From Bacteroidales bacterium (GTDB lineage Bacteria > Bacteroidota > Bacteroidia > Bacteroidales > UBA7960), in contig PWJC01000052.1 in NCBI GenBank assembly GCA_003560165.1, forward strand, positions 1 to 63,161: a stretch of 63,161 nucleotides of DNA, read 5' to 3'. Under the pieces are notes generated by a model that had not been told where the DNA came from, ran no database searches, and worked only from the letters and a program-made list of their open reading frames with translations. Each line of letters starts with the position of its first letter. Within the stretch, counting starts at the first letter, position 1. Shown piece by piece: positions 1-63,161 of the stretch. A program made the position numbers and the translations under genes.

Positions 1-63
1 ACCTTCTACCTTCCACCTTCTACCTTCTACCTTCTACCTTCCACCTTCCTCCTCCCACCTATC
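1..63. repeat. Heptamer tandem array (ACCTTCY)x7 plus 2 degenerate units, truncated by the window edge
   Basis: Units ACCTTCT/ACCTTCC at 1-49, then TCCTCCC and ACCTATC; ends 2 nt from the porU stop codon. Confidence 0.95.
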
Positions 64-34848: not shown

Positions 34849-36023
34849 ATGCAAAAAACCTTTATTCCCCTGCTGCTGGCGGCCATGCTGCTAACGGGGG
34901 GATGCAGCAGCCCAAAACCCCTTGGTACGGGCAACATCCGACATTTGGAGGCCGGAAGCTCCGGACCTGGAATGTTCTATGCCCTCCCCCATACGGTTTT
35001 CGCCATTGATGTGGAAGTGTTGCATACGGCCAGAACGCCCGGTCCTTACGCAGCCTATGCCCGGCGGTACCTTGGTCTGGAAGGGGTGATCAACAGGAGT
35101 ACCGACACCTATGAGATCAGCCGGGTAAGCATCAGCGGTTTTGCAGAGCCCGATCCCACCCAGGTCTATTACATCGGCCTCCCGGCAGCGGACAACCAGG
35201 GCCGATCCATGTATCTTTCGCTTACCGAATCGGGGCTGATCCTGGGGATCAACCGCCCCGATGCCGAAACCGGGACCCGTGGCCAGGGCCATCTGAGCAA
35301 GGATTACGGCCGCTTTGGCACCGATGCCACATTCAACCATTTCATGGATAGCAACCTCAGGGAACAGATCGACACCATCGTCGAGCAGATGAGGGTAGAC
35401 ACCCTTACCGTGCAGAGGCAAACCCTGAGAAGGAGCTGGGTGGAAAAGAGCACCGAACTACGCGCCAGCGAGGTGGCCGAATACATCCTGCAGATCAGGG
35501 AGAAAAAATTCGACCTGATCAGTGGCTTCCAGGAGATCAATTACTCAAAAGAAGCCCTGGAATATATGTATTCGGAGATGGACAAACTCGAAAGTGATTA
35601 CCTCGACCTGTTTACCGGGATCACGTCAAAAAGCACCATCCGTTACCGCTTTCTGCATACTCCCGACAAGAATCTGACCGGGCAGAAACAGTCGATCTTC
35701 CGTTTCTCTCACACCGAAGGGGTGAATCCGGACAGGGAAGGCGATGGGATGCCCGTCAGCATCCTTTACGACAGGAGCCAGGTCACCGACCTGCTCACCG
35801 CGCGCAGCGGAGGGCAAGCGGACGAAGACCGCCGCAGTGCGGCCGGCATCCACTACCGGATTCCGGAGTACGGCAATATCGCATTGTATGTGGGCGACAC
35901 AAAACGCGCCGAAGCGAGGCTGCTGGTCAACCAGTTCGGTGTTGTCACCTACCTCCCCCCCGGGATTCTCGACATGGAGTTTTATCCGGACACCGGTTCG
36001 CTCCGGTCGGTGGGCGAGGAAGA

Positions 36024-36030
<7 letters not shown>
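34849..36030 (+). CDS. DUF4831-like lipoprotein
   Basis: Lipobox LTGGC, FYALPHT, PGPYAAYARRYLG, YLDLFTG, YRIP, NQFG, TGSL. Confidence 0.7.
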
Positions 36031-36149
<119 letters not shown>

Positions 36150-36205
36150 CCTTCTAATTTCTTTTTCCGACAGTGCATCTTACCAAAACATAACATTATC
36201 AACGC

Positions 36206-49203: not shown

Positions 49204-50442
49204 TTAGTCGTACAGGAAATAGGGTTTGGCCCTGAGCACGAAATCCGGGATTCCGGCCGTCCATAATTCCATGATGTCGCTTACCCGGAAGTTTTTCTGA
49301 AAGGCCTTGCGTACCCGGTCGGTACCGCACACCTTGTCGAACATATCCAGCCGGTTGGGGGACAGCTCAAAAATATCGTATTCGGGATGCATGCGAAATA
49401 CCTCCTGCACCACATAGAACTGTATCAGCGACAGGGGGGCACTCCGAAGGTCGGTAAGGTGGACCTGCACCCCACGCATCCGTTTGCCTTCCATATTGGT
49501 GTAAAACGGCCTGAAATGAATGGGGCGGAAGATAACCCCCGGGATGTCGAGTTGGTTGAGCCGGCTGGCCAGCAATTCGGCATCGTCTATCCAGTCGGTC
49601 CCGAACAATTGAAAAGGCAGGGTGTAGCCCACTCCGATGTTAACCAGGTAGAGTTCGCCGAGTATTCCCGATACGGGATAGAAATAGGCCGAATGGGCAT
49701 GGGGAATATGGGGAGAGGACATTACCCACGGAAGTCCGGTGTCTTCAAAAGACATGTCGCGCTTCCAGCCCTTCATTTCGATCACGGTGAGATCGGCCTG
49801 TATCCTGCCGCTCAACAGCCCTTCGCCGTTGAGGAAACGGGCCAGCTCGCCCACGGTGAATCCATGAACATAGGTGATGGGGAACTGACTGACAAAGGAA
49901 ATGAAGCCGGCCTCCACCAAAGGCCCCTCGAACTTGTTCCCGCCAAGAGGGTTGGGACGGTCAAGCACCATGAAAGGAATGCCGTTTTCGGCAGCGGCCT
50001 CCATGGCCAGGCCCAGGGTGCTGATATAGGTATAGGAGCGGGAACCGATGTCCTGGATGTCGTAAACCAGCACATCCACTCCCTCGAGCATGGCCGGGGT
50101 GGGTTTGCGGGTGGGGCCGTAGAGGCTGAACATGGGGACTCCGGTGCGGGGATCCTTCTGGTTTTCGACATAGTCGCCGGCAGGGTAATCTCCCCTGACC
50201 CCGTGCTCGGGGCCATAGAGGGCTACCAGTTCCACTCCGGGGGCAGCGGCCAGTATGTCGACGGTCGAGTTCAGCCAGCGGTCAACGCCGGTAGGGTTGG
50301 TGATCAGCCCGACCCGCTTGCCGCGCAATGGCTCGAAATCAAGCCCCCTGAGTACCTCAATGCCGGTCATCACCGTGGCATTTGCGTGCATTGCAGAGAA
50401 AAGCAGCATAAAAAAACCAACGTATTTAAGCCTCATAGGCAT
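49204..50442 (-). CDS. namZ: Exo-beta-N-acetylmuramidase NamZ (DUF1343)
   Basis: Signal peptide, GKRVGLITNPTG, PEHGVRG, SLYG, DIQDIGSRSYTY, LDRPNP, HGFTVGELA, WVMSSPHIP; start 50442 or 50436; TATATTTG motif at 50510-50517 on minus. Confidence 0.88.
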   Translation of the reverse strand: MPMRLKYVGFFMLLFSAMHANATVMTGIEVLRGLDFEPLRGKRVGLITNPTGVDRWLNSTVDILAAAPGVELVALYGPEHGVRGDYPAGDYVENQKDPRTGVPMFSLYGPTRKPTPAMLEGVDVLVYDIQDIGSRSYTYISTLGLAMEAAAENGIPFMVLDRPNPLGGNKFEGPLVEAGFISFVSQFPITYVHGFTVGELARFLNGEGLLSGRIQADLTVIEMKGWKRDMSFEDTGLPWVMSSPHIPHAHSAYFYPVSGILGELYLVNIGVGYTLPFQLFGTDWIDDAELLASRLNQLDIPGVIFRPIHFRPFYTNMEGKRMRGVQVHLTDLRSAPLSLIQFYVVQEVFRMHPEYDIFELSPNRLDMFDKVCGTDRVRKAFQKNFRVSDIMELWTAGIPDFVLRAKPYFLYD

Positions 50443-50533
50443 GGCGGGAGTAGCTGGATTGAAAGGAAATGGAAGATTGTTTACTTTTGGTTTACCAAAA
50501 GAATCAAAACAAATATACATGATTTTTTTAAGT

Positions 50534-50636
50534 GGAAGGCAGAAGACGGAAGACGGAACGACTTTCAGACCTTTTGACCTTTCGACATTTAAACTTTTTA
50601 CTACTTAACTCATCACTCACTACTCATCACTACTTT
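50534..50636. repeat. Degenerate composite 7-mer/8-mer array
   Basis: GGAAGGC AGAAGAC GGAAGAC; 8-mers GACTTTCA GACCTTTT GACCTTTC GACATTTA AACTTTTT; 7-mers ACTACTT, ACTCATC, ACTCACT, ACTCATC, ACTACTT. Confidence 0.7.
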
Positions 50637-50669
50637 CGGCCTTACCGGATATATAAAAATTAGGAACAC

Positions 50670-52532
50670 ATGAAGTCGCTATTTTCTCCCCTGTCGGTCA
50701 TCGTCCTGTTCTTTCTGCTGCTTGCTGCCTGCAGGCCGGAGTACAACGAGCGACTGCACTTCGCATGGCTGACCGATCTGCATGTAAGCCCCGGAACCCC
50801 GTCAAGCGAACAGCTGCGCGCTGTGGTAAAAGACATCAATGCCCTGGCTCCCGACCTGGTTGTCATTACCGGCGACATCACCAACCATGGCTCCGGTGAA
50901 GAACTCAGGCATGTAAAAAAGCTGCTCGGCGAACTTGGGATGCCCTACCACATCCTTCCGGGCAATCACGAGACCAATTGGTCGGAAAGTGCCGGTCAGG
51001 ATTTTCAGGAGTTCTGGGGGGACGATAAATTCCTGTTCTGCCAGGGCAGCTTCCTGTTTGCCGGCCTGAACACCGGTCCGTTTATGCGCATGGGCGACGG
51101 GCATGTAAAACAACAGGATATCGCCTGGCTGAGGCGGGAGCTGTCGGAAAAGGCCGAAGCCGGGCTGAGGCTGTTGTTCTTTTCCCACTACCCCCTGGCC
51201 GAAGGTCTCGATCAGTGGTACCTGATCACCGACATCCTGAAGGCCCATGACGCCCGCCTGGCCTTATGCGGACATGGCCACCGCCAGGATCTGCTGAACT
51301 TCGATGGCATCCAGGGCGTGATGGGGCGGTCGATGGTGCTCAGGGGGCAGCATACCCCCGGCTACAACCTGGTGGAGATCACCCCCGACAGTGTGTTTGT
51401 GTTTGAAAAAGAAGTGGGCAGCGAAACGGCCGTACTCAACCATTCACTGAGCCTGGACCCGGCGGCCCGGGTCCAGCCCCTTCCTTATTCCGACCGCCCG
51501 GATTACAGCATCAACGAAGTTTACCCTGAAATCGGCAAAAACTGGTTGCTCACCGACACAGCCTCGGTGTTCACCGGCCCCCTGCTCGTGGGAGACAGCC
51601 TGCTGATCTACGGGAACTCACTGGGACATTTGCACTGCTACGCGATAGCGGACAAGAGAAAGCGCTGGACGCTTGCCCTTGAAGGCCCGCTCTACGCCAC
51701 CCCGGTGCTTGCCGGCGAACTGGTCATCGCAGGCGGTCTCGATGGCAAACTCTATGGCATCGATCCTGGTTCGGGCCGGCCGCAATGGTCTTTCGCGGTC
51801 AAAAAGCCCCTGATCGCCCCGGCTGTGGTCAAAGATGCCCATCTCTACCTGGGGGGCGGCAGCGGAAGCTTTTATAAAATCTGCGCACTCAGCGGGCGGG
51901 AGGTGTGGCGTTTTGATGGGGCAGAGGGCCTGATACAGGCCGCTGCAGTCATCGAAGGCGATGCGGTGGTATTTGCCGCCTGGGACACCCATATGTACTG
52001 CCTCGACAGGGCCGACGGACGGCTTCGATGGAAGTGGAACAACCAAAGCCCCGTCAGGCTCTTCTCTCCCGGTAATGTAGTCCCGGTAATATCGGGTGGT
52101 ACAGTTTTCGTTGTGGCCCCGGATCGCTACATGACGGCCATCGACCTGGAAAGCGGTCATCAAAGGTGGCGCACGGGCAAGCACCAGGTAAGGGAGTCGA
52201 TGGGTGTTTCAGGCGACCGCCTGCATGTGTACGTCAAGCTCATGAACGACAGCATCCTCTCGGTGAAGGCCGACCCCGGAAGTTTTCAGACAGCCTGGAT
52301 ACTGGATGCAGGATTTGGTTACGACCACAACCCTGCCCCCCTGGTCTCGCATGGGGGCATGCTGTTTGCTGCCACGAAAAACGGCCTGATCATGGCCATC
52401 GACGAAAACAAGGGGGAGGTCGTCTGGCAACACAAGGCGGGCAATTCGGCCGTGAACTTCATGACCACGACCGAAAGCCGCGAACTGTGGGTAAGCACTG
52501 CCGATGGGAAAATATTTTCCATTCCCTTTTAA
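50670..52532 (+). CDS. Lipoprotein: calcineurin-like metallophosphoesterase plus PQQ-like beta-propeller
   Basis: Lipobox LLAAC, TDLH, TGD, PGNHE, HYP, GHGH; repeated D...G...W propeller blades in the C-terminal half. Confidence 0.88.
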   Translation: MKSLFSPLSVIVLFFLLLAACRPEYNERLHFAWLTDLHVSPGTPSSEQLRAVVKDINALAPDLVVITGDITNHGSGEELRHVKKLLGELGMPYHILPGNHETNWSESAGQDFQEFWGDDKFLFCQGSFLFAGLNTGPFMRMGDGHVKQQDIAWLRRELSEKAEAGLRLLFFSHYPLAEGLDQWYLITDILKAHDARLALCGHGHRQDLLNFDGIQGVMGRSMVLRGQHTPGYNLVEITPDSVFVFEKEVGSETAVLNHSLSLDPAARVQPLPYSDRPDYSINEVYPEIGKNWLLTDTASVFTGPLLVGDSLLIYGNSLGHLHCYAIADKRKRWTLALEGPLYATPVLAGELVIAGGLDGKLYGIDPGSGRPQWSFAVKKPLIAPAVVKDAHLYLGGGSGSFYKICALSGREVWRFDGAEGLIQAAAVIEGDAVVFAAWDTHMYCLDRADGRLRWKWNNQSPVRLFSPGNVVPVISGGTVFVVAPDRYMTAIDLESGHQRWRTGKHQVRESMGVSGDRLHVYVKLMNDSILSVKADPGSFQTAWILDAGFGYDHNPAPLVSHGGMLFAATKNGLIMAIDENKGEVVWQHKAGNSAVNFMTTTESRELWVSTADGKIFSIPF

Positions 52533-52585: not shown

Positions 52586-54448
52586 TCAGCCCGGCTGCCT
52601 GCCCGTTTTTTCCTTGATCCCAAAGGACCGGTCGATCTTCAGAAAGCGGATGACCACAAATCCAGGTATGGTACAGAGTACCACCCAGATAAAGAAATTG
52701 TGGTAGCCGATGATCTCCTGTATCCAGCCTGAGATCATGCCGGGAAGCATCATTCCCATGGCCATCAGGCCCGTACAGATAGCGAAATGGGCGGTTTTGT
52801 GCCTGCCCTCGGAAAAGTAGATCATATACAGCATATAGGCCGTAAATCCGAAACCATAGCCGAACTGCTCCAGGGCCACGGCGCCCGATATCAGCCAAAG
52901 GCTTGTCGGCAATGCCGACGAGAGGTAAACAAATACCAGATTGGGCACATTCATGGCCAGGGCCATGGGGAAGATCCAGAATTTCAGTCCCCGCCTGGAG
53001 GCCATCATCCCGCCGAGTATGCCTCCAAGGGTGAGGGCCAGGATGCCCACGGTACCATATACCAGGCCCACATCGCCGGTGGTAAGGCCAAGCCCCCCGA
53101 TCTCCCTGGCATCGAGCATAAAGGGAGAGGCCATCTTGACGATCTGTGCCTCTCCCAGCCTGAACAGAAGCAGGAAGGAAAGGGCGGGCCCGATGTTGTT
53201 TTTCCGGAAAAAGGAACCGAAGGTCTGGAAAAACTCATAGAAAACACCCTTGCCTTCCGATCTCCTGGCAGACACATCGGCTGCAGGCCGCGGAAGGATC
53301 AGTTTGTGAAATATAAAAAAGCCCACGAACAAGGCTGCCAGCACGATGAAGGTAATGGTCCAGGCCAGGGGGATATTGCCCGAACGGCCTTCAAAAAAAG
53401 TCACGGCCCGGCGGTCGAGCTGAGGGTCGAGTTGCAGCAGCAGCCAGCCCTTCTGGTCCCAATTGGCCACGGTGAACACCAACCGCTCGCCCTCTGCCAG
53501 GCGGATACTGGCATCGCCCCGCTGGAAGCCCGTATTCAATACGATCTCACGGCCTTCGTCGGGGGGGTTGTTCAGACGCACCCCCACCAACCCCATATTG
53601 CCTTGGAACTCACTCAGCCCGGGGTCGTCGGGCTCGCTGATACGCAAACGATCGCGCAACCAGGCGCTGAAGGGATTGCCGATGGTGCGGGCCCACCACG
53701 ACACCGTGAGCTCTCCGGGTTCGGGTTCGGGCTCCACAAAACCCCAGGCCAGATTTTGCTGTCTGACCCATTGGCGGATGCTGTCGGCTTCCTCTCTCGG
53801 GATAGTTTGGGTAGAGAGTACCTGGTCGTGGCCATATACGACAAACGCCAGCCCTTCCGATTGCGCTATCCCTTCTTCGTGCGGGAACTGCCTGAACTCG
53901 GTTGCCTGGGGGTCGGCCTCCACGGTGAACACCACCGGCTCCTGACCGGTAAATACCTCAAAAAAGCCGGCCAGAATAACCAGCAGGCCCTGGCCGGTGA
54001 TCATGGCAAAACGGTAAAACGTGCTCCGGATACCGATAAAGTAAGACTGCTGCCCTTCTTTCAGGCCCAGCATATAGAACCCGTCGGCCGCAATATCGTG
54101 GGTGGCCGAACTGAATGCCAGCAACCAGAGAAAAGCCAGGGAGTACTGGAAAAAAGAGGCAAGCGGAAGGGTAAAGGCCACCCCGGCCAGTCCGGCACCC
54201 ACCAGCAGCTGCATGGTGGTGATCCACCAGCGCTTGGTCCTGAACAGGTCGACGACGGGACTCCACAGGGGCTTGATGACCCAGGGCAAATAAAGCCAGC
54301 TGGTATACAAGGCGATGTCGGCATTCGAAACCCCCAGGCGCTTGTACATGATCACCGAAACGGTCATCACCACCACATAGGGAATACCCTGGGCATAATA
54401 CAGGCTCGGCACCCAGCTCCAGGCAGATTGCTGTTTTATTTTGTCCAT
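52586..54448 (-). CDS. ampG: AmpG-like MFS muropeptide permease with a large soluble insertion
   Basis: WVPSLYYAQGIPY, LPWVIKPLWSP, SATHDIAADG, EQFGYGFGFTAY, TAHFAICTG; hydrophilic insert at about aa 169-356. Confidence 0.8.
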   Translation of the reverse strand: MDKIKQQSAWSWVPSLYYAQGIPYVVVMTVSVIMYKRLGVSNADIALYTSWLYLPWVIKPLWSPVVDLFRTKRWWITTMQLLVGAGLAGVAFTLPLASFFQYSLAFLWLLAFSSATHDIAADGFYMLGLKEGQQSYFIGIRSTFYRFAMITGQGLLVILAGFFEVFTGQEPVVFTVEADPQATEFRQFPHEEGIAQSEGLAFVVYGHDQVLSTQTIPREEADSIRQWVRQQNLAWGFVEPEPEPGELTVSWWARTIGNPFSAWLRDRLRISEPDDPGLSEFQGNMGLVGVRLNNPPDEGREIVLNTGFQRGDASIRLAEGERLVFTVANWDQKGWLLLQLDPQLDRRAVTFFEGRSGNIPLAWTITFIVLAALFVGFFIFHKLILPRPAADVSARRSEGKGVFYEFFQTFGSFFRKNNIGPALSFLLLFRLGEAQIVKMASPFMLDAREIGGLGLTTGDVGLVYGTVGILALTLGGILGGMMASRRGLKFWIFPMALAMNVPNLVFVYLSSALPTSLWLISGAVALEQFGYGFGFTAYMLYMIYFSEGRHKTAHFAICTGLMAMGMMLPGMISGWIQEIIGYHNFFIWVVLCTIPGFVVIRFLKIDRSFGIKEKTGRQPG

Positions 54449-54450
54449 AT

Positions 54451-54686
54451 TTAGCTTTTGGGTTTTGGCTGTTGGGTTTTGGCTGTTGGCTGTTGGGTTT
54501 TGGCTGTTGGCAGTTGGCTTTTTAAACTTTTCAACTTTTCAACTTTTCAACTTTTCAACTCTTCAACTTTTCAACTTTTCAACTCTTCAACTTTTCAACC
54601 TTCTTCTTCCTACTTACTACTTACTACTTACTACTTACTACTTACTACTTACTACCTTCTACCTCCTCCCTTCTCCCTCCTCCCAC
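54451..54686. repeat. Composite repeat cassette A-B-linker-C-D (longest copy)
   Basis: 10 TTGGCTG/TTGGGTT-type units; TTTA; 9 x AACT(T/C)TTC; AACC; TTCTTCTTCC; 6 x TACTTAC; TACCTTC TACCTCC TCCCTTC TCCCTCC; fills the spoIID-ampG gap. Confidence 0.97.
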
Positions 54687-56027
54687 TCAGTATATCTTCT
54701 CCACTGCGGCTCCCCTGAAATAATGCGCCAAAATGTCTGTATAGCTATATCCCCTGCTTCCCATTACCGCAGCGCCTATCTGGCACAAACCCACTCCATG
54801 CCCCCATCCGGCCCCGGAGAAAAGATACTTTTGGGGGACACCCTGGTGGATATCTGCGGGACGGGCAACAAATGCGGCGCTATACAGATGGGAGGATGAA
54901 AAAGCCTTCCTGATCTCCAGCTCCTTGCCGATGATCACCTCCCCCCGGCTGCCCCTAATGCCCAGCCTGATCAGCCGGCCCGACACCCCCCGGCTGACAG
55001 GGATCAGTTCCAGGACCTCTCCCACATCGACCGACACCCTGGATTTCAGCAATTCCCTGATTTCTTCCTGGGAGTATTCGACCTGCCAGCGAAAAAAATC
55101 AACCGTTTCCCTGTCGTAATCGTTCAAAATCTGCGAAAGCACCTCAGGGTCGGCCGTGTTGCAAAAGGCCTCCGGAGAGTTTGTGATCCATGCCCCGGCT
55201 TTTTCCTCTGTATCCAGCACGGTATCGAAGCCCGGCGGGGGTCGGTGGTTGTCGGTCACTTTGGTCAGATAGGGATGACGGACCGCTTCCCACACATTTT
55301 CGAACAACTCGGTAATGCCCCCGCAGCATTTCGAATACCTGGCGTCGCAAATGCCGCCCTCATGGGTCAGCACCATTCCGGCAGTGGCGTCAACGGCTTT
55401 GCGTACAGCCGGTGTGGAAGCCCTGCTCAGCCCCTGGTAACGCTGGCAATGATCGTCGGCGCATACGTGGAAGTGAGTGTGGTCTTCGCGATCGTACCAC
55501 CGGATGCGTTCTCCTTCATCTTCTTTAATTCCGGGGCTTCGCCCCTGCCCTTTCAGACGTCTGGCCTTCTCATGCTGGGCCATCAGCCAGCTGCGTGAAA
55601 CGACGGCATGGGCTTTCAAAAGTTCCTCCGATGAGGTAGCGCTCATTTCGGAGGAAATGACGCTTTTCAGGTAGTCTTCCAGCAAAAGGATGTTGATAGC
55701 CAACAGTCTGCCATCGGACTCCATGATGCTCAGGGTTCCCGGAAAATGCTGTTTTTCCTTTCTTTCCCAGTGAAAGCCGATGCCAATGGTCACATCGCTG
55801 AGTTCGAAGGATGCCTCTGCGGAACCGACCGGCGAAAACACAAGTGGCAGGTCTGTACGCTCTTTCCGGCCGCCCAGTTGCAACCGCCACCCCCCTTCTG
55901 CTGTTGATTCCAGAAAACCTTCACCACTCAGACGCGGCCCACCCCTGCCTATTTCGTAGCTCCCGTGCAGCCTGAAGGCAATTTTCGGTGCGCTCATGAT
56001 CCCCACCCGGATGATTGATTGTTGCAT
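54687..56027 (-). CDS. SpoIID/LytB domain lytic transglycosylase-like protein
   Basis: LEDYLKSVISSEM, LKAHAVVSRS, VCADDHCQRYQG, YSKCCGG, GAGWGHGVGLCQIGA, ILAHYF. Confidence 0.9.
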   Translation of the reverse strand: MQQSIIRVGIMSAPKIAFRLHGSYEIGRGGPRLSGEGFLESTAEGGWRLQLGGRKERTDLPLVFSPVGSAEASFELSDVTIGIGFHWERKEKQHFPGTLSIMESDGRLLAINILLLEDYLKSVISSEMSATSSEELLKAHAVVSRSWLMAQHEKARRLKGQGRSPGIKEDEGERIRWYDREDHTHFHVCADDHCQRYQGLSRASTPAVRKAVDATAGMVLTHEGGICDARYSKCCGGITELFENVWEAVRHPYLTKVTDNHRPPPGFDTVLDTEEKAGAWITNSPEAFCNTADPEVLSQILNDYDRETVDFFRWQVEYSQEEIRELLKSRVSVDVGEVLELIPVSRGVSGRLIRLGIRGSRGEVIIGKELEIRKAFSSSHLYSAAFVARPADIHQGVPQKYLFSGAGWGHGVGLCQIGAAVMGSRGYSYTDILAHYFRGAAVEKIY

Positions 56028-56075
56028 TTGGTTATCGTTTTTATGTTTCGGTGTTTGGAGAAGTCAAGAAGGTTA

Positions 56076-56267
56076 AAGGCTGTTGGGTTTTGGCTGTTGG
56101 GTTTTGGCTGTTGGCTGTTGGGTTTTGGCTGTTGGCTGTTGGCTTTTTAAACTTTTAAACTTTTCAACTCTTAAACTTTTCAACTCTTCAACTTTTCAAC
56201 GTTCTTCTTCCTACCTACTACCTACTACCTACTACTTACTACTTACTACTTACTACCTTCCACCTTC
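56076..56267. repeat. Composite repeat cassette A-B-linker-C-D
   Basis: 10 TTGGCTG/TTGGGTT-type units; TTTA; 6 x AACT(T/C)TT(C/A); AACG; TTCTTCTTCC; TACCTACx3, TACTTACx3; TACCTTC CACCTTC. Confidence 0.97.
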
Positions 56268-56273
56268 CGTCAA

Positions 56274-56289
56274 CCCCGTCGACACGGGG
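56274..56289 (-). other. Short GC hairpin between the GNAT stop codon and the repeat cassette
   Basis: CCCCGT-CGAC-ACGGGG; no long T tract on the sense strand, so not a clear terminator. Confidence 0.4.
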
Positions 56290-56291
56290 GT

Positions 56292-57209
56292 TTATTGTAT
56301 TGTTTTTTCCATTCTCCAGAACACCCGGTCGATAGAGGCATCCACATAATGAGCATAAAATGCAACGGGGGCAACCCAGGGAATAATGGCCTGACGGTGT
56401 CCCTGGTCCTGCATGTCCTGAAGGCAGCGCTTAAGTAACACATTGCCCACACCAAGGCCCCTCGCATCGGGATGGGTGCCCATCGGGCCGAACCAGCCGC
56501 TGCCCTTGTTGTTGCCATTGTGCACTGAAAAAGCTATTATCCGGTTATTTTTCAAGGCAATATGCACCGAGGGCGGACTATCCCGCATGGCCATATCCAC
56601 CTCGTTGTTCCACAGGGCCCATTCCTGGCTCAGCAAATCCCGCAATGCCGGGAGGTCGGCTTCGCCGGCACGGCGCACTTCCACTCCCCTTTCCTGCAGG
56701 CTGCGCTCGGCCAGCCCGGTCGACCAGTCTTTGCCCTGCAACGGTGCAAGCATGTTGACGGCCTCCCCCACCTGTTTAAACCCATGCCTTAGCGCAAAGC
56801 AATAGGCAGGGGTATACCTCGGATCCAGCCCTGGCATGAAATAATTAAGGGGCACGTCGTACCAGCGCATGGCCGTCACCCCGCTTTGCTTCAGCAGGCC
56901 CTCTGCCCGTTCGTACAACCGGCTGCCCAGGCCGCGCCGTCGATGCGGCTTGCCCACTGCCATCAGTTTCACATAGCCAAGCCGCTGACCCCTGATGTCG
57001 CGTTGAACGCAATACAGCATCCCGGCGATCAGTTCACCGGCCATTGCCGTAAAGCACAGACCGGAGTCGGCCATGGGGTCGTCGTGCAGCTTCTCCCCCA
57101 GCATGCCGGCCCCGATGCTGTCGTAGTCCCAATTGCTGTCGAGAAAGGCAGCCATGGCCTCCAGATCCTCCGGCCAGCCCTGAACAATGCGTATGTCTTT
57201 GTTTTTCAT
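56292..57209 (-). CDS. Tandem two-domain GNAT N-acetyltransferase
   Basis: Two acetyl-CoA motifs VGKPHRRRGLGSRL and THPDARGLGVG; YFMPGLD; WFGPMG; start 57209 or 57245, since the ORF-track start lies inside the repeat. Confidence 0.85.
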   Translation of the reverse strand: MKNKDIRIVQGWPEDLEAMAAFLDSNWDYDSIGAGMLGEKLHDDPMADSGLCFTAMAGELIAGMLYCVQRDIRGQRLGYVKLMAVGKPHRRRGLGSRLYERAEGLLKQSGVTAMRWYDVPLNYFMPGLDPRYTPAYCFALRHGFKQVGEAVNMLAPLQGKDWSTGLAERSLQERGVEVRRAGEADLPALRDLLSQEWALWNNEVDMAMRDSPPSVHIALKNNRIIAFSVHNGNNKGSGWFGPMGTHPDARGLGVGNVLLKRCLQDMQDQGHRQAIIPWVAPVAFYAHYVDASIDRVFWRMEKTIQ

Positions 57210-57249
57210 CTTGTGCCCATCGTTTAAACGTGCAAACCAATTCATTCTA

Positions 57250-57333
57250 TTGGCTGTTGGCTGTTGGCTTTTCAACTTTTCAACTTTTCAACTTTTCAAC
57301 TTTTCAACTTTCTTCTTCCTACCTACTACCTAC
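57250..57333. repeat. Composite repeat cassette A-B-linker-C (short copy)
   Basis: TTGGCTGx2, TTGGCTT; TTC; 4 x AACTTTTC; AACT; TTCTTCTTCC; TACCTACx2; overlaps the last codons and stop of the DUF4922 gene. Confidence 0.95.
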
Positions 57334-58293
57334 TGCCCTGATAATGCGATCTATATCGGCCTGGGCCGGGCATACCTGTTCGAAAACATCCTTTACCACC
57401 TCCCTGCCTATCCTGGGGAAATCCTGCTCTCTGGGGATGATGAACATGCCCCCCATGTCCACGGATGCCGGGCTCAGCAGAATACGGTCATCGCCTTCTG
57501 CATAGAACTGCCACGGACGGTGAGCCCTGCGGGGGAACACAGCAACCCGCAATATCTCTTTGTGTTCCCAGGCCAGGACATTGAGCATCGGCTCCTCCTG
57601 CCTGGCCCCGCCATGGGGTAAAAGGGCCAGCAAATCCTCAAAGGTCCGGCAGAGGGCCCTGTCATCAGCGCCTTCGAGCACAAGGCAGGGGCGGCCGTAG
57701 CCCCGGGGCGACCAGATCGTGTTCCCCCCCGACTCCCTGAGCAGGGATTTGGGAAGGATATCCAACTCCTTCCCAATGGGGAGGAAGCCCTTGTTGCCGG
57801 CCTGGAAATGAAAATGATCGGGTGCCGAAGCCCCGCAGCCCGGGCCGTTGTAAAATACCACAAAGTCGTCCAGTTCCCTGGCCAGGGCCAGCATGGGCGC
57901 CATGCGGCCCGCTATCCTCTGGGGAAGGTGTTCCCTTAGCGGAATGGTCAGGTGGCGGGTGAAAATGGGGAAGGGATTCACCAGGATAAGGTAATCGGCA
58001 CCGAAGGATACCCCGCGTTGCTGTGGGGGCAAATGGGCTGGGCACAGGAAACATTTCCGCTCACTCACCGACTTTTGGTCGACCCTGGCGGCCGAGGAAG
58101 TGATCCGCCACGGATTGTGTTGCACCCCGATCACGACCCCCCTGCCCAGTGTCAAAAAGCGTTGGTGCACCTGTTTTAGCCCTGCATAGTTGCCCGAGGC
58201 CAGTTCCCAGCCCCGGAGCTGTTGTTCGAACAGGGCATAGACCCTTTCCTGCAAGCCCATCGGTCTATCAGGATTCGTCCCTTCTTTTGCCAT
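57319..58293 (-). CDS. DUF4922 family protein (HIT-superfamily HxHxQ nucleotidyl phosphorylase-like)
   Basis: QHNPWRITS, CFLC, LVNPFPIF, HLTI, FYNGPGCGASAPDHFHFQ, EPMLN, LSPASVDMGG. Confidence 0.82.
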   Translation of the reverse strand: MAKEGTNPDRPMGLQERVYALFEQQLRGWELASGNYAGLKQVHQRFLTLGRGVVIGVQHNPWRITSSAARVDQKSVSERKCFLCPAHLPPQQRGVSFGADYLILVNPFPIFTRHLTIPLREHLPQRIAGRMAPMLALARELDDFVVFYNGPGCGASAPDHFHFQAGNKGFLPIGKELDILPKSLLRESGGNTIWSPRGYGRPCLVLEGADDRALCRTFEDLLALLPHGGARQEEPMLNVLAWEHKEILRVAVFPRRAHRPWQFYAEGDDRILLSPASVDMGGMFIIPREQDFPRIGREVVKDVFEQVCPAQADIDRIIRAVGSR

Positions 58294-58296
58294 GAC

Positions 58297-59775
58297 CTAT
58301 GCCTTATTGCTGTTCATGGCGATCCTGGCCCACAGTTCGATGGTACGTATCCTGTCCTTGTAAAAGTTGTGGCTGTTCTGCCTGCCGATATCCAGTGAGG
58401 CATCGGTGTTGTCTTCCCAGCGCCGGCACAGGTAGAGTGGCTCATAAATGCGCCCGATCCGGTAGTGGCGCGATATCTGCAGGGCCACGGCATAATCCTC
58501 ACCGTAGCTCACATTGGGCAGGCGGACCAATCGAAGGACCGGGGTATAGAACGCCCTGGGGGCCCCCAGCCCGTTGATCCGCAGTGCATTGTTGCGTCCG
58601 TTGTCGGGGGTCCACTCCCGGTGGTCGATCAGCCCCGGGGGGATCTCCTCAAGCTTGAAGTTGACCATGCGGTAGCTGCCCACCACCATGGCACACTGCT
58701 GGGAATAAAATGAATCGACGATCTGGCGGACCACCTGGTCGTGAAGGTAAAGGTCGTCGCTGTCGAGTTGTATGGCAAAACGTCCACAGGCCTCATGAAA
58801 CAAGCCAATGTTCCAGCATCCGCCGATGCCCAGGTCATCCCTGCCGGGGACCACATGGATCAGCCGATCGTCTTCGCGCGAAAGCTCTTCCAGCAACTGC
58901 GATGTCCCGTCGTTCGAATGGTTGTCGACCACGATCAGGTTAAAGGAAAAGGGGGTCTGTTGTGCAAAGACCGAACGAACGGCATCTTCGATGGTCCTGA
59001 TACGGTTTTTAACGGGGATGATCACCGAAGCCTCCGCCGGGAAATCCCCTGCCGACAGATCCACCTCAGAAAAAACGGGGCTCAGCCAGCCACCGATTGC
59101 CTTCAGGTGAGAGGTGCAAGCCTTTTCCATCTCGATCTGCACTTCCCTGTTTTTGGGATCGACGTAATCGAAGATTTTCTCGCCCGAGCTGCGGGTATCG
59201 GTTTCCATTTCGGTATAAAGGAATTCGGGGATCCTGAGCAGCCGGTTTTCGCGGGATACCCGAAGCCGCAGATCGTACAGGCCGGCATACAGAAAGTCCT
59301 GGTCCATACGGGACACGGTCCGGCGCAGGTCTTCGGTGCGGTAAAGCAAAACCGGCCCGAAGTTGAAGTCGTCGCGCAGGCTGCCATCCTGGTAATCAAT
59401 CACCGGCAAGGCCGATAAGTTGCCGTCCTTCATCTGGTAGTGATCGGAATAGACCATGCCAGACCCGGTGCTTTGAGCAACCTGAAGCATCCTTTCGAGC
59501 GCAAAAGCCCCCAGCCTGAGCGGTTGGGTCTTGTTGTAGACAAGGACATATTCCGAATTGCACAAGGCCGACATTTGCTTCACCCCCCGGGTCGACTGCA
59601 TGCTACCGATGTCGGCGTAACGGCCCTTTTCGGGCATTCGCAGCTTTTCGTGGGGGGGCTTGCCCACTATAAAAATGCTGCTCACCAGTGGGTGGTTGCC
59701 CAGTTCATCCAGGCTGGCCTGCAGTTCAGTGCGTTCTCCTGCGGGTAAAAAACAACTGATCGTAGATTGGTTCAT
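58297..59775 (-). CDS. Glycosyltransferase family 2 protein with an additional degenerate N-terminal GT-A-like region
   Basis: [31 protein letters not shown]; N-terminal VYSDH...[14 protein letters not shown]...YDLRLR. Confidence 0.87.
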
Positions 59776-59789
59776 AAGCAACAGGTCTT

Positions 59790-62700
59790 TTATGGCTGTT
59801 TGAAAAAATTAAGTATCTGTTTCATGAGGTAGTCCCGTTCTCCCTCGTCGATAATGGCCTCAAAGGGGAAGCCCATTGAAAAAGCCTTGTGACCACCCTG
59901 GTAGAGCACCGCTGCGCTCGACTTGCCAGGGGCGTAACGGTATGCCGTGGCCCCGCCCCCGGCAACGGCTTCAATGGCATCGGGAGCCCCGACCGTATAG
60001 ATCAGCGGATGCCAGCCGGTATTGATGGCCAGGGCCTCAAAACCCATCGCTCCGGCAATTGCCGTCGGGGTTAGCCCGGGGGTGTTGCTGGCATTGTCCG
60101 ACCGCCAGAGGAAGCCCAGAATGTCTTCGGCAAAGCGGACAGCTTCCGCGTCGTTGTGCCGGATCATGTCGGTGCCGGTGTAAGCACCCGAAACAAGGAT
60201 ATTACCTCCCGAAAGGGCGTATTGCCGGAGCCCTTCCCTCATGGGCGGACTGAAGACCCTGAAAACAGTTTTATTGCTGCCTGGCCACTCGGGAATCCCC
60301 TTCTGAAGGCCCGCGACAAGGTTCACCGCCCAATAGTCGGATGAGGTGAATGAACCGGCCTCAAAGGCCTTCCTGCTTACCGATACGAAGGAGTACCCGG
60401 CGTTGCGGATGGCTTTGCCGTGAACAGATGGATAGTCGAAGCTGTTTCCCTGCCGTATCCGGCCTTCCCAGTCTGCATAGCTGGCACCACAGCCGGGGCT
60501 GTCGTCATCCAGCCAGGGCGATCCCCTGTCGAAATCGTATTGCATGCCGGTATAAGCCACCGAATGTCCGAGGGGAACATCCATTCCCCCCCACCAACGG
60601 CGTCCGGCCAATTGGCCGGTATCGAATACCTGCGGACCGCTGAGGCGGTCAAAGCCATTGACCACCAGCACCTCTTCCTGCTGGCCGGGCAACAGGGCCA
60701 CCGACAGGATTTCGGAGGGGAAGCTTTCTCCTCCGCTGTTCAGTGCGGTTACCTTGTACGAATAGATGGTATGCCAGGCGGGGAGTTCGATCAGGGCATA
60801 GGGATCGCTTACCACCCACCCCTGGCAGAATCCGGCTCCTTCGGCACGCTGGTAAATTTTGTAATGGGAAGGCACGGCCGAATCTTCCAGCTTATCCCCG
60901 GCCCCCCGCCACGACAGCATGATGGTTTTTCCTTCCACCCGCCTGATGGCCATGCTGTCGGGAGGCAGGGGTTTTACCACGGCCTCCCTGCCTTCCTGCC
61001 CGGCAAGGAAGCGAAGGATGCCCTTGTAAATGGCACGCCCCACCATAAACTGGAAGCGGGGGTCGAGCCCGTAGCTGATATCGGCCAGGTTTTGATGGGA
61101 ATACAATTCGAGTAGCATGGCCGGCACATTCGGACGCCAGGCTTCCGAATACGCCCGGTCCCATAGTGCCCGCCGTGTCCAATCTGGATTTGCCATAGCC
61201 CGGATGTCGGAAACGATCTGATCCTGGACCATGTCGGAGAGGTCACGGCCGGCCAGCCGGGAAACCCCATCGGGAAACATCCCCCCGTCGCGCTCAGCGC
61301 TGTAGATGGCCAGGGTGCCTATGACCGAATCGCCGGGAGTTACTCCCGCATCGGTATGAAATGAAAGGGAAAGGTCGATGGGGATGCCCAGACCCGCATT
61401 CCTGTCATTTTGAGGTCCGAAAGGAGCTCCCATCAGAAAATTAACCCATTCGCCCCGCGACATGTAGTCGTCGTTGTAGTCATTCCTTCCTTCATTGAGC
61501 GAATACACAAGGGTATCGGGCATTCCGGCATATTGCAGGTAATACCGGGCGCCTTCCTGATAGCGGGGCCGTCCGCTGGTCCGCCAGGTGGAATGCTCAG
61601 GCAGGGGGCCGGGTACTGAGGCTTCGGTGACATCCGTTTGGCGGTCTGAGTCCGAACGCCGGTTGGGGAGGGAAATGCCGGATGCCCCCCTGGCAATGCT
61701 ACCCATCCCCCCGCCAAAACGCACAGCACCCGCAGTAAGTACCCCATCATGAGCGGAATGGGTGAGCAGTTGCAGCCGACCCGACTCAGAATCGAGTCCC
61801 TGCTTAAAATAAAAATGCCCCAGATAGACCCAGGTGCCGTGGCCCATGGCCTGGTTTACCTCAAAGCTGGCCGTTCCTCCTGCATAACTGAGATCAAGCC
61901 TTGCATCGGGTACCGCAGCAGCCGTTTTGGCCCAGGAAAAATACACAGCATACTTCCCACTGGCCGGGATATCGGGCACATAGGTCAGGGAGCCACCCTG
62001 GTTGGTGGGTATCTTCAGATGCACTCCTTCATCGAAAGGGTTTACAGGCCCGGTCAGGGGTTCAATGCGGTCAAATCCACCCGATTCCTGCTTCCACCCG
62101 GCCTGCCCGTGATCCACCAGCAGCTGACCCTGGTTCCCGGCAATGCCCGGTCCGATGATCACTTCGTGCACCTGCACATCCCTTTCCCTGGGCAACAATA
62201 CATTGGCGCCGGCATTTTCGAGCATGGGGGCGACATACCCCAGCACGTAGTCGGCCGTAAGCATGTCTTCTACCGTGCCGAACAGCCTGGCCCGCTGCCA
62301 TTGCCAGCGGTCGTTCACGGCATTGTAATAATAACCGTGGCTGTGCCAGAGTGCAATGTGGTTTCCCGATAAGCCGCCCTCAAATCCGGGTTGTCCGGTT
62401 TTCCTGACCAGGGCCGGGACAGGGGAACGCGGCCTGATCCTCAGGGTGTCGGGGGGAATGTGGCCGTTGCGGAAGTGGTTCGGCACAAAATCGGTAAGTG
62501 GGTTGTCCCCGCTAAGCAGGCTGAGGCTGTAATTTCTGAAAACCCATCCCAGGCTGTTCATCAGTCCGGTTTCGAGCGATAGCAACCAGGGGACCCTCAT
62601 GGGCAGATGGGTGATTGCCGGACTGAAATGCACCGCAATATGGCGGTCTCTCCGCATGACAACGATGCTGTCGATCCCCATATGCCCCAGGTGGCGGTAG

Positions 62701-62858
62701 TGAAGGAAAAAATCATCGAAATCATCCAGGCGGTTCACTGCCCGGCGTTCGACCCAGCGATCGGGCGAAAACACCGACTGCCCGCTGGCCGCGCCCCCTA
62801 TCAGCAGGAGAGGCAAGAGACAAAAGAGCCTGCGAAGCACCCGGGAAATTCCTTTCAT
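59790..62858 (-). CDS. Exported multidomain protein: amidase_3-like catalytic domain, golvesin/xanthan-lyase-C-like module, FN3 domain
   Basis: Signal peptide; [25 protein letters not shown]; GKYAVYFSW...VNQ...[10 protein letters not shown]...AVRFGGG; [14 protein letters not shown]. Confidence 0.7.
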
Positions 62859-62923: not shown

Positions 62924-63022
62924 TTAACTCTTTTCCAATTACAAAAAAATGACACACTTATATTGAACATTCCTCTTTAGCCTGCAAGCATTGCGACAGT
63001 TAAAACCAGGGAAAACCCCAAC

Positions 63023-63161
63023 AGGTTTAAAGGTTTAAAAGTTTAAAGGTTTAAAAGTTTAAGTACCGGATAATCAGCCTTTAAACTCTTCAACTCTTCA
63101 ACTCTTCAACTCTTCAACTCTTCAACTCTTCAACTCTTCAACTCTTCAACTCTTCAACTCT
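63023..63161. repeat. Two opposed octamer arrays, truncated by the window edge
   Basis: A(G/A)GTTTAA x5 (63023-63062), 17-nt spacer, TTTA, then AACTCTTC x9 plus a partial unit. Confidence 0.95.

Follow-up and report, generated by a model that had tools for sequence, protein, structure and literature searches.

Contig PWJC01000052.1 of the Bacteroidales bacterium assembly GCA_003560165.1, analysed here over its whole length of 63,161 nucleotides (the window), carries tandem repeats with 7- and 8-base units at three consecutive junctions of one gene cluster, and at each junction the repeat blocks follow one another in the same order and are joined by the same linker. The question raised by this locus is what such ordered composites are, and why their order should be fixed. 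The original prediction was of a dispersed, ordered element with expandable modules, as opposed to independent microsatellites. This is borne out across the genome by eight unit classes, a one-way order and 52 copies of the linker. The layout is not peculiar to this operon: further arrays lie within the window itself (at 1-60, 36021-36149, 50534-50590 and 63023-63161) and hundreds are found genome-wide. What occupies the three junctions belongs to a family of composite simple-sequence spacers that extends across the genome, is specific to this species and is situated between one stop codon and the next start codon. The draft genome of this uncultured soda-lake bacterium, of which the window is one complete contig, comprises 2.71 Mb in 184 contigs with 53.7% G+C.

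Block copy numbers and bounds were taken from Tandem Repeats Finder (TRF). Read on the plus strand, block A (period 7) has 10.4, 9.6 and 2.9 copies in cassettes 1, 2 and 3 respectively (54450-54522, 56078-56144 and 57250-57269), block B (period 8) has 10.0, 7.0 and 5.5 copies (54520-54599, 56145-56200 and 57268-57311), and block C (period 7) has 7.1, 6.9 and 2.3 copies (54606-54655, 56211-56258 and 57319-57334); block D lies at 54655-54684 and 56256-56267 and, as predicted, is missing from the short third copy. In our block layout, C of cassette 1 is bounded at 54611-54655 and A of cassette 2 at 56078-56147. Earlier counts of 10/10/3 A units agree with these values, those of B (9/6/4) were about one unit low, and those of C had been given as 6/6/2. 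Every A block closes with TTGGCTT (3/3 cassettes), which had also been claimed, and the junction of B with C reads TTCAAC-N-TTCTTCTTCC-TAC in all three, the linker TTCTTCTTCC lying at 54601-54610, 56202-56211 and 57310-57319. This 20-base junction pattern, allowing at most one mismatch, occurs three times in the window against a mean of 0.00 in 100 dinucleotide-preserving shuffles of the window, none of which reached three. All three stretches were recovered with their common layout and fixed linker.

The plus-strand layout is as originally described, but the flanking genes are all on the minus strand, so the reverse complement is the meaningful reading. On this, the messenger RNA (mRNA) strand, the order is stop codon, D (GGAGG/GAAGGTA-type), C (GTAAGTA, then GTAGGTA), GGAAGAAGAA, B, A and ATG, the sense units of B being GTTGAAAA/GTTGAAGA (GTTGAARA) and those of A being CAGCCAA/GCCAAAA. 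Cassette 1 (54449..54686, minus strand) takes up all of the sequence that separates the stop codon of a SpoIID-like gene (54687-54689) from the ATG of an AmpG-like permease gene (54448-54446). Cassette 2 (56028..56291, minus strand) runs from the stop codon of a GNAT acetyltransferase gene (56292-56294) to the SpoIID-like ATG (56027-56025), from which its A block is separated by approximately 50 non-repeat bases (56028-56077). A short GC hairpin (CCCCG...CGGGG) is seen on the minus strand at about 56268-56291, between the GNAT stop and the arrays, which is terminator-stem-like and has no clear T run. Cassette 3 (57246..57334, minus strand), the short form, likewise occupies one of the three consecutive junctions but qualifies the statement that the cassettes sit between genes, being partly coding: its C array encodes the last four codons and TAG stop of a DUF4922 gene. 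Its A block ends 4 bases before a candidate ATG (57245-57243), and a second candidate ATG lies at 57209-57207. No Rfam family matched anywhere in the window at gathering thresholds.

Genome-wide, TRF reported 386 period-7 and 417 period-8 rows among 1884, and arrays of at least three copies numbered 321 (period 7) and 298 (period 8). We defined cassettes by merging the period-7 and period-8 rows with at least 2.8 copies (n = 664), which gave 286 cassettes with a combined length of 35,727 bases (1.3% of the genome); the cassette total is approximately 270-290, and analyses of order and of whole block strings use a set of 269. Eight unit classes accommodate 643 of the 664 arrays within one mismatch. 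Their succession is one-way on the sense strand: C is followed by B in 48 neighbouring pairs and never the reverse, B by A in 33 and never the reverse, and D, E and F precede B 28, 27 and 26 times, while B arms facing one another form 63 convergent pairs and 0 divergent. Complete strings of C-B-A (18/269 cassettes) and C-B-B(reverse) (20/269) were found with no reversed order, these counts being lower bounds because contig ends cut 170 of the 269 cassettes. The linker is present in 52 copies (54 in a looser version, 45 in the strict form first proposed), and the genome-wide examination of order and linker that had been suggested therefore shows neither to be random. By our own crude gene caller (2016 genes, 87% coding), which was also used for polarity, cassettes are mostly noncoding; six of 269 fall inside a called gene, and 20 of 286 have more than half of their length in called genes.

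Such arrays break short-read assemblies, and about one third of the contig ends in this genome (126/368, both ends of the window included) lie inside them. Since assembly evidently struggles here, we considered whether a single repeat locus might have been collapsed or copied into three places, an explanation we hold to be very improbable. The three copies have unique coding flanks, conserved gene order and different copy numbers. A scan of a metagenome collection located the linker at 52 loci, all within one metagenome; these loci are 99-100% identical to the genome and bridge pairs of its contigs across cassettes, and the identity together with the joining of contigs indicates an independent assembly of the same population. 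Among 13 cassettes compared between the two assemblies, which do not include the three focal ones, ten are equal in length; of the other three, the first differs by a single 7-base unit, the second by 11+3 bases and the third in array content. In addition, 13 sequencing runs contain at least half of the words sampled from a 4-kb region here, and runs containing the region derive from soda- and salt-lake samples.

The cassettes are polar with respect to genes. Where a block adjoins a stop codon it is sense-oriented in 123 of 140 cases, at a median distance of 12 bases, and the blocks most commonly adjoining a start are B antisense (55), A sense (25) and D antisense (24). Beside starts the A block is sense-oriented 25 times and antisense twice; the gene 3' of an A block is on the same strand in 34 cases versus 12, eleven of the 34 lying within 31 bases. 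Among 66 internal cassettes between co-directional genes, 49 match the strand of those genes and 17 do not. Replication-strand bias was ruled out as the cause of polarity, because 51 of 105 neighbouring cassette pairs switch orientation, and we conclude that polarity is set by genes and not by replication; both orientations are present in 41 of the 63 contigs with at least two polar cassettes.

Base composition is no less asymmetric. On the sense strand, C makes up less than 1% of classes B, C, D and H and T less than 1% of class F; class A has 3% T and 11% G there. All three sense frames are interrupted by stop codons in every C array (75/75) and in most arrays of B (207/229) and D (71/92), while the antisense strand is open. 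The half of a cassette beside the stop is G-rich and almost free of C, and the half beside the start is G-poor, consisting of CA-rich GCCAAAA or reverse-complement blocks. Where arrays take up half or more of a co-directional spacer, its first 60 bases have a G-C skew of +0.67 and its last 60 one of -0.40; both skew thresholds are reached by 16 of 26 such spacers, versus 7 of 244 that are free of arrays. This asymmetry, and the invariable placement of the G-rich arm on the 5' side of either strand (convergent pairs 63, divergent 0), might suggest a role at the level of DNA or transcription: sense RNA that is purine-rich and free of C would be resistant to Rho and prone to form R-loops, while an antisense transcript, rich in C and free of G, would be an ideal site for Rho to load, so that antisense transcription would be silenced or neighbouring units insulated. 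Rho prefers C-rich, G-poor, unstructured RNA. The sense A block, however, is itself C-rich and G-poor and lies before a gene, where it would invite termination of the operon, and we think a transcriptional role improbable.

The A block can also be compared with ordinary gene leaders. Across 833 array-free leaders the sequence is A-rich and G-poor (G 0.09-0.21 from -20 to -1) with an A peak at -11 to -13, and a Shine-Dalgarno signal is absent from these leaders; A-rich leaders lacking a Shine-Dalgarno sequence are known as a general feature of Bacteroidota. The A block shares this bias. The three cassettes also fold weakly, the sense RNA of cassettes 1, 2 and 3 giving -0.12, -0.17 and -0.08 kcal/mol/nt against a median of -0.26 (5-95% range -0.37 to -0.17) for 220 array-free spacers. 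These features lend some weight to a tentative alternative, possible though clearly short of probable, that the cassettes are functional mRNA elements, in which a G-rich, C-free stop pad would end translation in any frame and stay unpaired and a CA-rich start pad would recruit ribosomes, or the repeats would form a periodic platform for an RNA-binding protein (S1, a cold-shock protein, an RRM protein or a pentameric PF05635 protein being candidates), and copy number would tune the downstream gene. Strict polarity, the sense orientation of A blocks beside starts and the same-strand gene 3' of them all speak in its favour, and a translational role has been proposed for TAACTGA heptamers upstream of starts, according to the part of the account in PMC4679880 that treats them. 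Against it, the sequences are species-specific, the first two junctions of the same cluster have no cassette, and the orthologous junctions of relatives are short and repeat-free or contain different units, such that a conserved requirement is not visible.

That comparison with relatives had been recommended at the outset and gives a divided answer. Two relatives have repeats at orthologous or neighbouring junctions of the cluster, with GTTGATGG-type units after the GT2 glycosyltransferase stop, CA-rich units before the SpoIID start and, in a congener, GTAAGTA-type units; in the remaining relatives the cluster junctions are short and without repeats. The linker has 0 matches in 40 other genomes, 24 of them congeneric. 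Triple B units number 828 in this genome, and 1-15 in eight of 76 other family genomes, all of other genera, with none in the 24 congeners (0/24). At six of ten fetched loci from other genera (L106, L107, L108, L109, L112 and L114), C-free GTTGANNG-type 8-mers stand at or just after a same-strand stop codon, as judged by eye, a placement that also favours a functional mRNA element; at L110, L111 and L115 the array is upstream of an opposite-strand gene. Overall, the loci of relatives contain 24 arrays of at least three copies in 889 kb, versus 619 TRF rows (with some overlap between rows) in the 2.7 Mb of this genome. Genomes of the genus and family are often highly fragmented (200-680 contigs per 2-6 Mb), which would fit with repeat-rich spacers being common in the clade.

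How the cassettes multiplied is indicated by cassettes 1 and 2, which when aligned are identical at 188 of 217 positions and have the same higher-order pattern within block A; a 21-mer from this pattern has just two copies in the genome, one in each of the two cassettes. This shared, private fine structure indicates that whole composites were copied or converted between junctions 1.6 kb apart, in keeping with the earlier suggestion of a 'converting' element. Transposition in the manner of MITEs (miniature inverted-repeat transposable elements), which had also been suggested, is a different matter. A non-autonomous element with internal microsatellites, moved by a transposase or recombinase on the model of BrickBuilt, could account for dozens of near-identical junctions (the 52 linkers), for their intergenic location without exception and for a limited host range; BrickBuilt likewise is intergenic, is species-limited and contains tandem repeats, in the description drawn from PMC4596501. 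A unique motif of approximately 50 bases could be similarly explained, having 51 copies in this genome (up to three mismatches) and 0 matches in 76 family genomes. Yet in the three cassettes, and in 40 junctions inspected, a unique leader or tail, terminal inverted repeats and a target-site duplication are all lacking. What borders the stop and start codons is repeat units, and in copy 3 the array forms the stop itself. The linker has 0 matches in viral contigs, by which a phage origin was also rejected, and no transposase was found beside the cassettes, although no search aimed at one was made. We consider a MITE-like origin unlikely.

The unique motif follows the 3' B arm and precedes GACATTTC-type 8-mers; for most of 49 listed copies, a start codon on the same strand is found 40-100 bases downstream. 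A structured RNA was tried and rejected, alifold giving no consensus structure and an energy of 0.0 on 44 aligned copies, as was a conserved promoter, given the 0 matches in the 76 family genomes; nor could the Bacteroidetes -33/-7 consensus or a sigma-54 box be fitted to the motif. Inspection by eye suggested hairpin variants with seemingly compensatory changes among the copies, on which we base no claim.

A possible source of the blocks is suggested by the single match in this genome to PF05635, the '23S rRNA intervening-sequence protein' (C15:216-533). The gene lies between B arms, sense at 118-161 after the upstream stop and antisense at 587-616 before the next start, and the B block of the focal cassettes (GTTGAARA units) is of the same arm type. 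Around C15:100-660 (locus L178) the gene is seen within inverted 8-mer arrays between two ordinary genes, and was missed by our crude caller. PF05635 occurs in 51 of 77 family genomes, with at most 11 matches per genome. Of 30 PF05635 loci fetched, 26 share more inverted than direct 6-mers between their flanks, and in 21 the upstream arm has G>C and the downstream arm C>G. Arms of GTTK-type 8-mers accompany all eight proteins closest to the C15 copy (44-63% identity); at more distant loci the arm units are others, among them GAAAGTA, which is a D-class variant here. A gene for RNase III is present in the genome.

The 63 convergent B pairs of this genome are gene-less, with loops of at most 30 bases. 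Strong hairpins at these arms were rejected, because 59 of the 63 pair a GTTGAA-type 5' arm with a GTTTAA-type 3' arm, producing one mismatch per 8 bases and -0.17 kcal/mol/nt; the TTAAAC form of the 3' arm gives the sense strand TAA stops. A search for convergent arms separated by 100-2500 bases gave nine candidate pairs with no called gene in any, and among these the C15 pair holds the PF05635 gene. Small genes, for example of the four-helix-bundle type, had been proposed as possible occupants of such junctions. A gene of this type is found between B-type arms at C15 but neither at the three cassette junctions nor in 80 orthologous loci of relatives. Small GIY-YIG genes within the cassettes were rejected, the sole PF01541 match falling within a 632-residue frame. 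Cassettes 1-3 have no reverse-complement arm; the array at 63023-63161, upstream of the cluster, has two.

Taken as a whole, we interpret the arrays as a transcribed spacer repeat that slips, converts and is filtered by translation, a reading to which we assign about an even chance of being correct. The arrays would have begun as arms of intervening-sequence-like PF05635 cassettes. They would lengthen and shorten by replication slippage, the loops of 7-8 bases escaping mismatch repair, and would spread and become homogenised through recombination or gene conversion between junctions. Copies would survive only in the orientation and order that spare translation termination and Shine-Dalgarno-less initiation, that is, where the upstream frame is not extended and nothing G-rich or structured precedes the start. 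The fixed 'grammar' of the blocks would then be a filter imposed by translation and not a message, and the three cassettes would be gene-less, one-armed derivatives serving as unstructured spacers.

Several observations weigh against this interpretation. Polarity is violated, on crude gene calls, by 17 of the 66 internal co-directional cassettes and 17 of the 140 stop-adjacent blocks, and stops in all frames are not universal, classes A, E and F being mostly without sense-strand stops. With 10 of 13 cassettes equal in length between the two assemblies, which may have reads in common, the case for rapid slippage is weak. An array density approximately tenfold that of relatives and an invariant 10-base linker at 52 sites are not obviously explained by a passive filter; a function, or copying in a recent burst, would also be compatible with the two. 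Cassettes 1-3 have neither a 3' arm nor an enclosed gene, so that descent from intervening-sequence-like cassettes depends on one block type held in common. Finally, transcription of the arrays within the operon mRNA, though most likely, is inferred only from gene order and spacing.

A bolder claim, which we regard as rather unlikely, is that the ordered blocks are a cis-acting code for uncoupling and restarting translation in operons without Shine-Dalgarno sequences, having a 5' module that is rich in G, free of C and full of stops and a 3' module that is poor in G, with the arrays acting as the binding lattice of a pentameric PF05635 protein whose gene rides in the full-length cassettes.

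Other arrays in the window display the same components. A hairpin-type array (62959..63161, minus strand) stands upstream of the first gene of the cluster and comprises a 5' arm of GTTGAAGA units (63084-63161) that extends beyond the contig end, a short loop and a 3' arm of TTAAAC-type units (63023-63062); one copy of the approximately 50-base species-specific motif follows the 3' arm at about 62960-63029 on the minus strand, some 100 bases upstream of the ATG at 62858. A plus-strand cassette (36021..36175) between plus-strand genes consists of GAAGGTA/GAAAGTA units, then GCCAAAA-type units, then a short reverse-complement closing arm, CCACCTTCTAATTTC.... At the left contig end a GAAGGTA-type array (1..60, minus strand) is cut short, the assembly breaking inside the cassette, and a mixed array without assigned strand (50534..50660), in the divergent spacer between a NamZ gene and a phosphoesterase/PQQ gene, has GAAGACG units followed by blocks in the opposite orientation. 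Long antisense (plus-strand) open reading frames (ORFs) cross the cassettes at 54441-54899, 54458-54718, 56083-56349 and 57187-57621, because the pyrimidine-rich strand contains no stop codons; we take these frames, with their low-complexity translations rich in L, F, W and Y, to be false ORFs that gene callers may report.

The cluster itself (52586..62858, minus strand) consists of six co-directional genes, encoding, in order of transcription, an amidase-like protein with a Golvesin_C domain (59790-62858, the first gene), a GT2 glycosyltransferase (58297-59781), the DUF4922 protein (57319-58293), a double GNAT acetyltransferase (56292-57245), the SpoIID-like protein (54687-56027) and the AmpG-like MFS permease (52586-54448). 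Adjacent to it are the NamZ gene (49204-50520, minus strand) and, divergent from this, the phosphoesterase/PQQ gene (50670-52532, plus strand). The six genes and NamZ apparently form a cell-wall (peptidoglycan) turnover cluster. Its first two junctions are just 8 and 3 bases long and the cassettes occupy the last three. Protein relatives of one window gene are from uncultured Bacteroidales, with a top identity of 64%, and the gene order of the cluster is found again in relatives. In one of these, judged solely from the arrangement of ORFs (locus L002, 4984-7329, set against 54687-58293 of the window), there is no double-GNAT gene between DUF4922 and SpoIID, and the double-GNAT gene may be a later insertion here, with a cassette on either side. 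Spacers of the same relative's cluster (L002 7330-7546 and 9449-9591) contain several palindromic units of approximately 25 bases, GGTCGTTGAGCCTGTCGAAACGACC-like, and this palindrome is a different dispersed repeat of that genome, resembling repetitive extragenic palindromic elements.

Abundant intergenic heptamer arrays in bacteria are already known, and are a repeat class lacking explanation, of which the present arrays represent an extreme, composite version. Long simple-sequence repeats with units of 5-11 bases, mainly heptamers, were described by Mrazek et al. 2007, as summarised in a passage of PMC4679880, and the class includes the heptamers of cyanobacterial short tandemly repeated repetitive (STRR) sequences and G-rich heptamers in Xanthomonas and Nostoc, according to a portion of PMC4692102. 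The present arrays resemble this class in their head-to-tail 7/8-base units, which are over-represented, nearly all intergenic, lineage-specific and unexplained. They depart from it in having eight classes in a fixed one-way order with conserved linkers, a three-letter alphabet per block, a polarity anchored to stops and starts, and a share of 1.3% of the genome. Unlike STRR sequences their host belongs to the Bacteroidales, and their units are not known to occur among the STRR heptamers of heterocystous cyanobacteria. TAACTGA heptamers are intergenic repeats of Beggiatoaceae, cyanobacteria and five Bacteroidetes (MacGregor 2015, the relevant part of PMC4679880). They are similar in being oriented to the downstream start, with stops in the forward reading and the reverse open, and in that orthologous spacers of close relatives are short and repeat-free; our arrays have other units, are ordered, multi-class and far denser, and their anchoring to the upstream stop is the stronger rule. 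TAACTGA is not among the canonical units of this genome's period-7 arrays (at least three copies).

ORF-bearing intervening sequences of 23S ribosomal RNA (S23p/PF05635) have inverted ends cut by RNase III, and variable-number tandem heptamers lie beside an intervening-sequence ORF at a 5' processing site, in the sections of PMC4990558 that concern them. Here too a PF05635 gene (C15) lies within complementary arms and the genome encodes RNase III. The location, however, is in spacers of protein-coding genes and not in ribosomal RNA, the focal cassettes have no ORF or 3' arm, and the gene-less arm pairs are mismatched every 8 bases and fold weakly. BrickBuilt, a MITE of Porphyromonas gingivalis, has one 23-base unit, a leader and tail with small inverted-repeat ends, and 19 copies, as far as the excerpted text of PMC4596501 describes it. 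It shares with our family a bacteroidote host, a limitation to species, an intergenic location and a tandem-repeat basis, but in our family the units are of 7-8 bases, unique ends are lacking and copies number in the hundreds. The earlier statement that no composite layout had been described went too far, because spacers of Bacteroidetes with 'larger assemblages of heptamer repeats' are already in the literature (a passage in PMC4679880); no description of an ordered composite of this kind was found in the open-access literature searched. The novel features are a strict order of several classes with conserved linkers, alphabets of three letters, anchoring to stop and start, high density, and a direct connection of one block to PF05635 arms within a single genome.

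In bacteria, heptamers and octamers in tandem rank with the commonest repeats that lack an explanation, and this genome provides an unusually clean natural experiment on them, with hundreds of arrays in eight classes, a one-way order and a polarity between stop and start. One practical consequence is that the stop-free antisense strand will cause gene callers to produce false ORFs across arrays. The link between blocks and PF05635 arms leads to testable hypotheses, namely compatibility with translation, processing by RNase III and binding by the four-helix-bundle protein. Were the cis-acting code, with its PF05635 binding lattice, to prove true, the long-unexplained heptamer repeats of bacteria would be traces left by a single protein-RNA (or protein-DNA) system of wide occurrence, which would have its greatest expansion in this genome.

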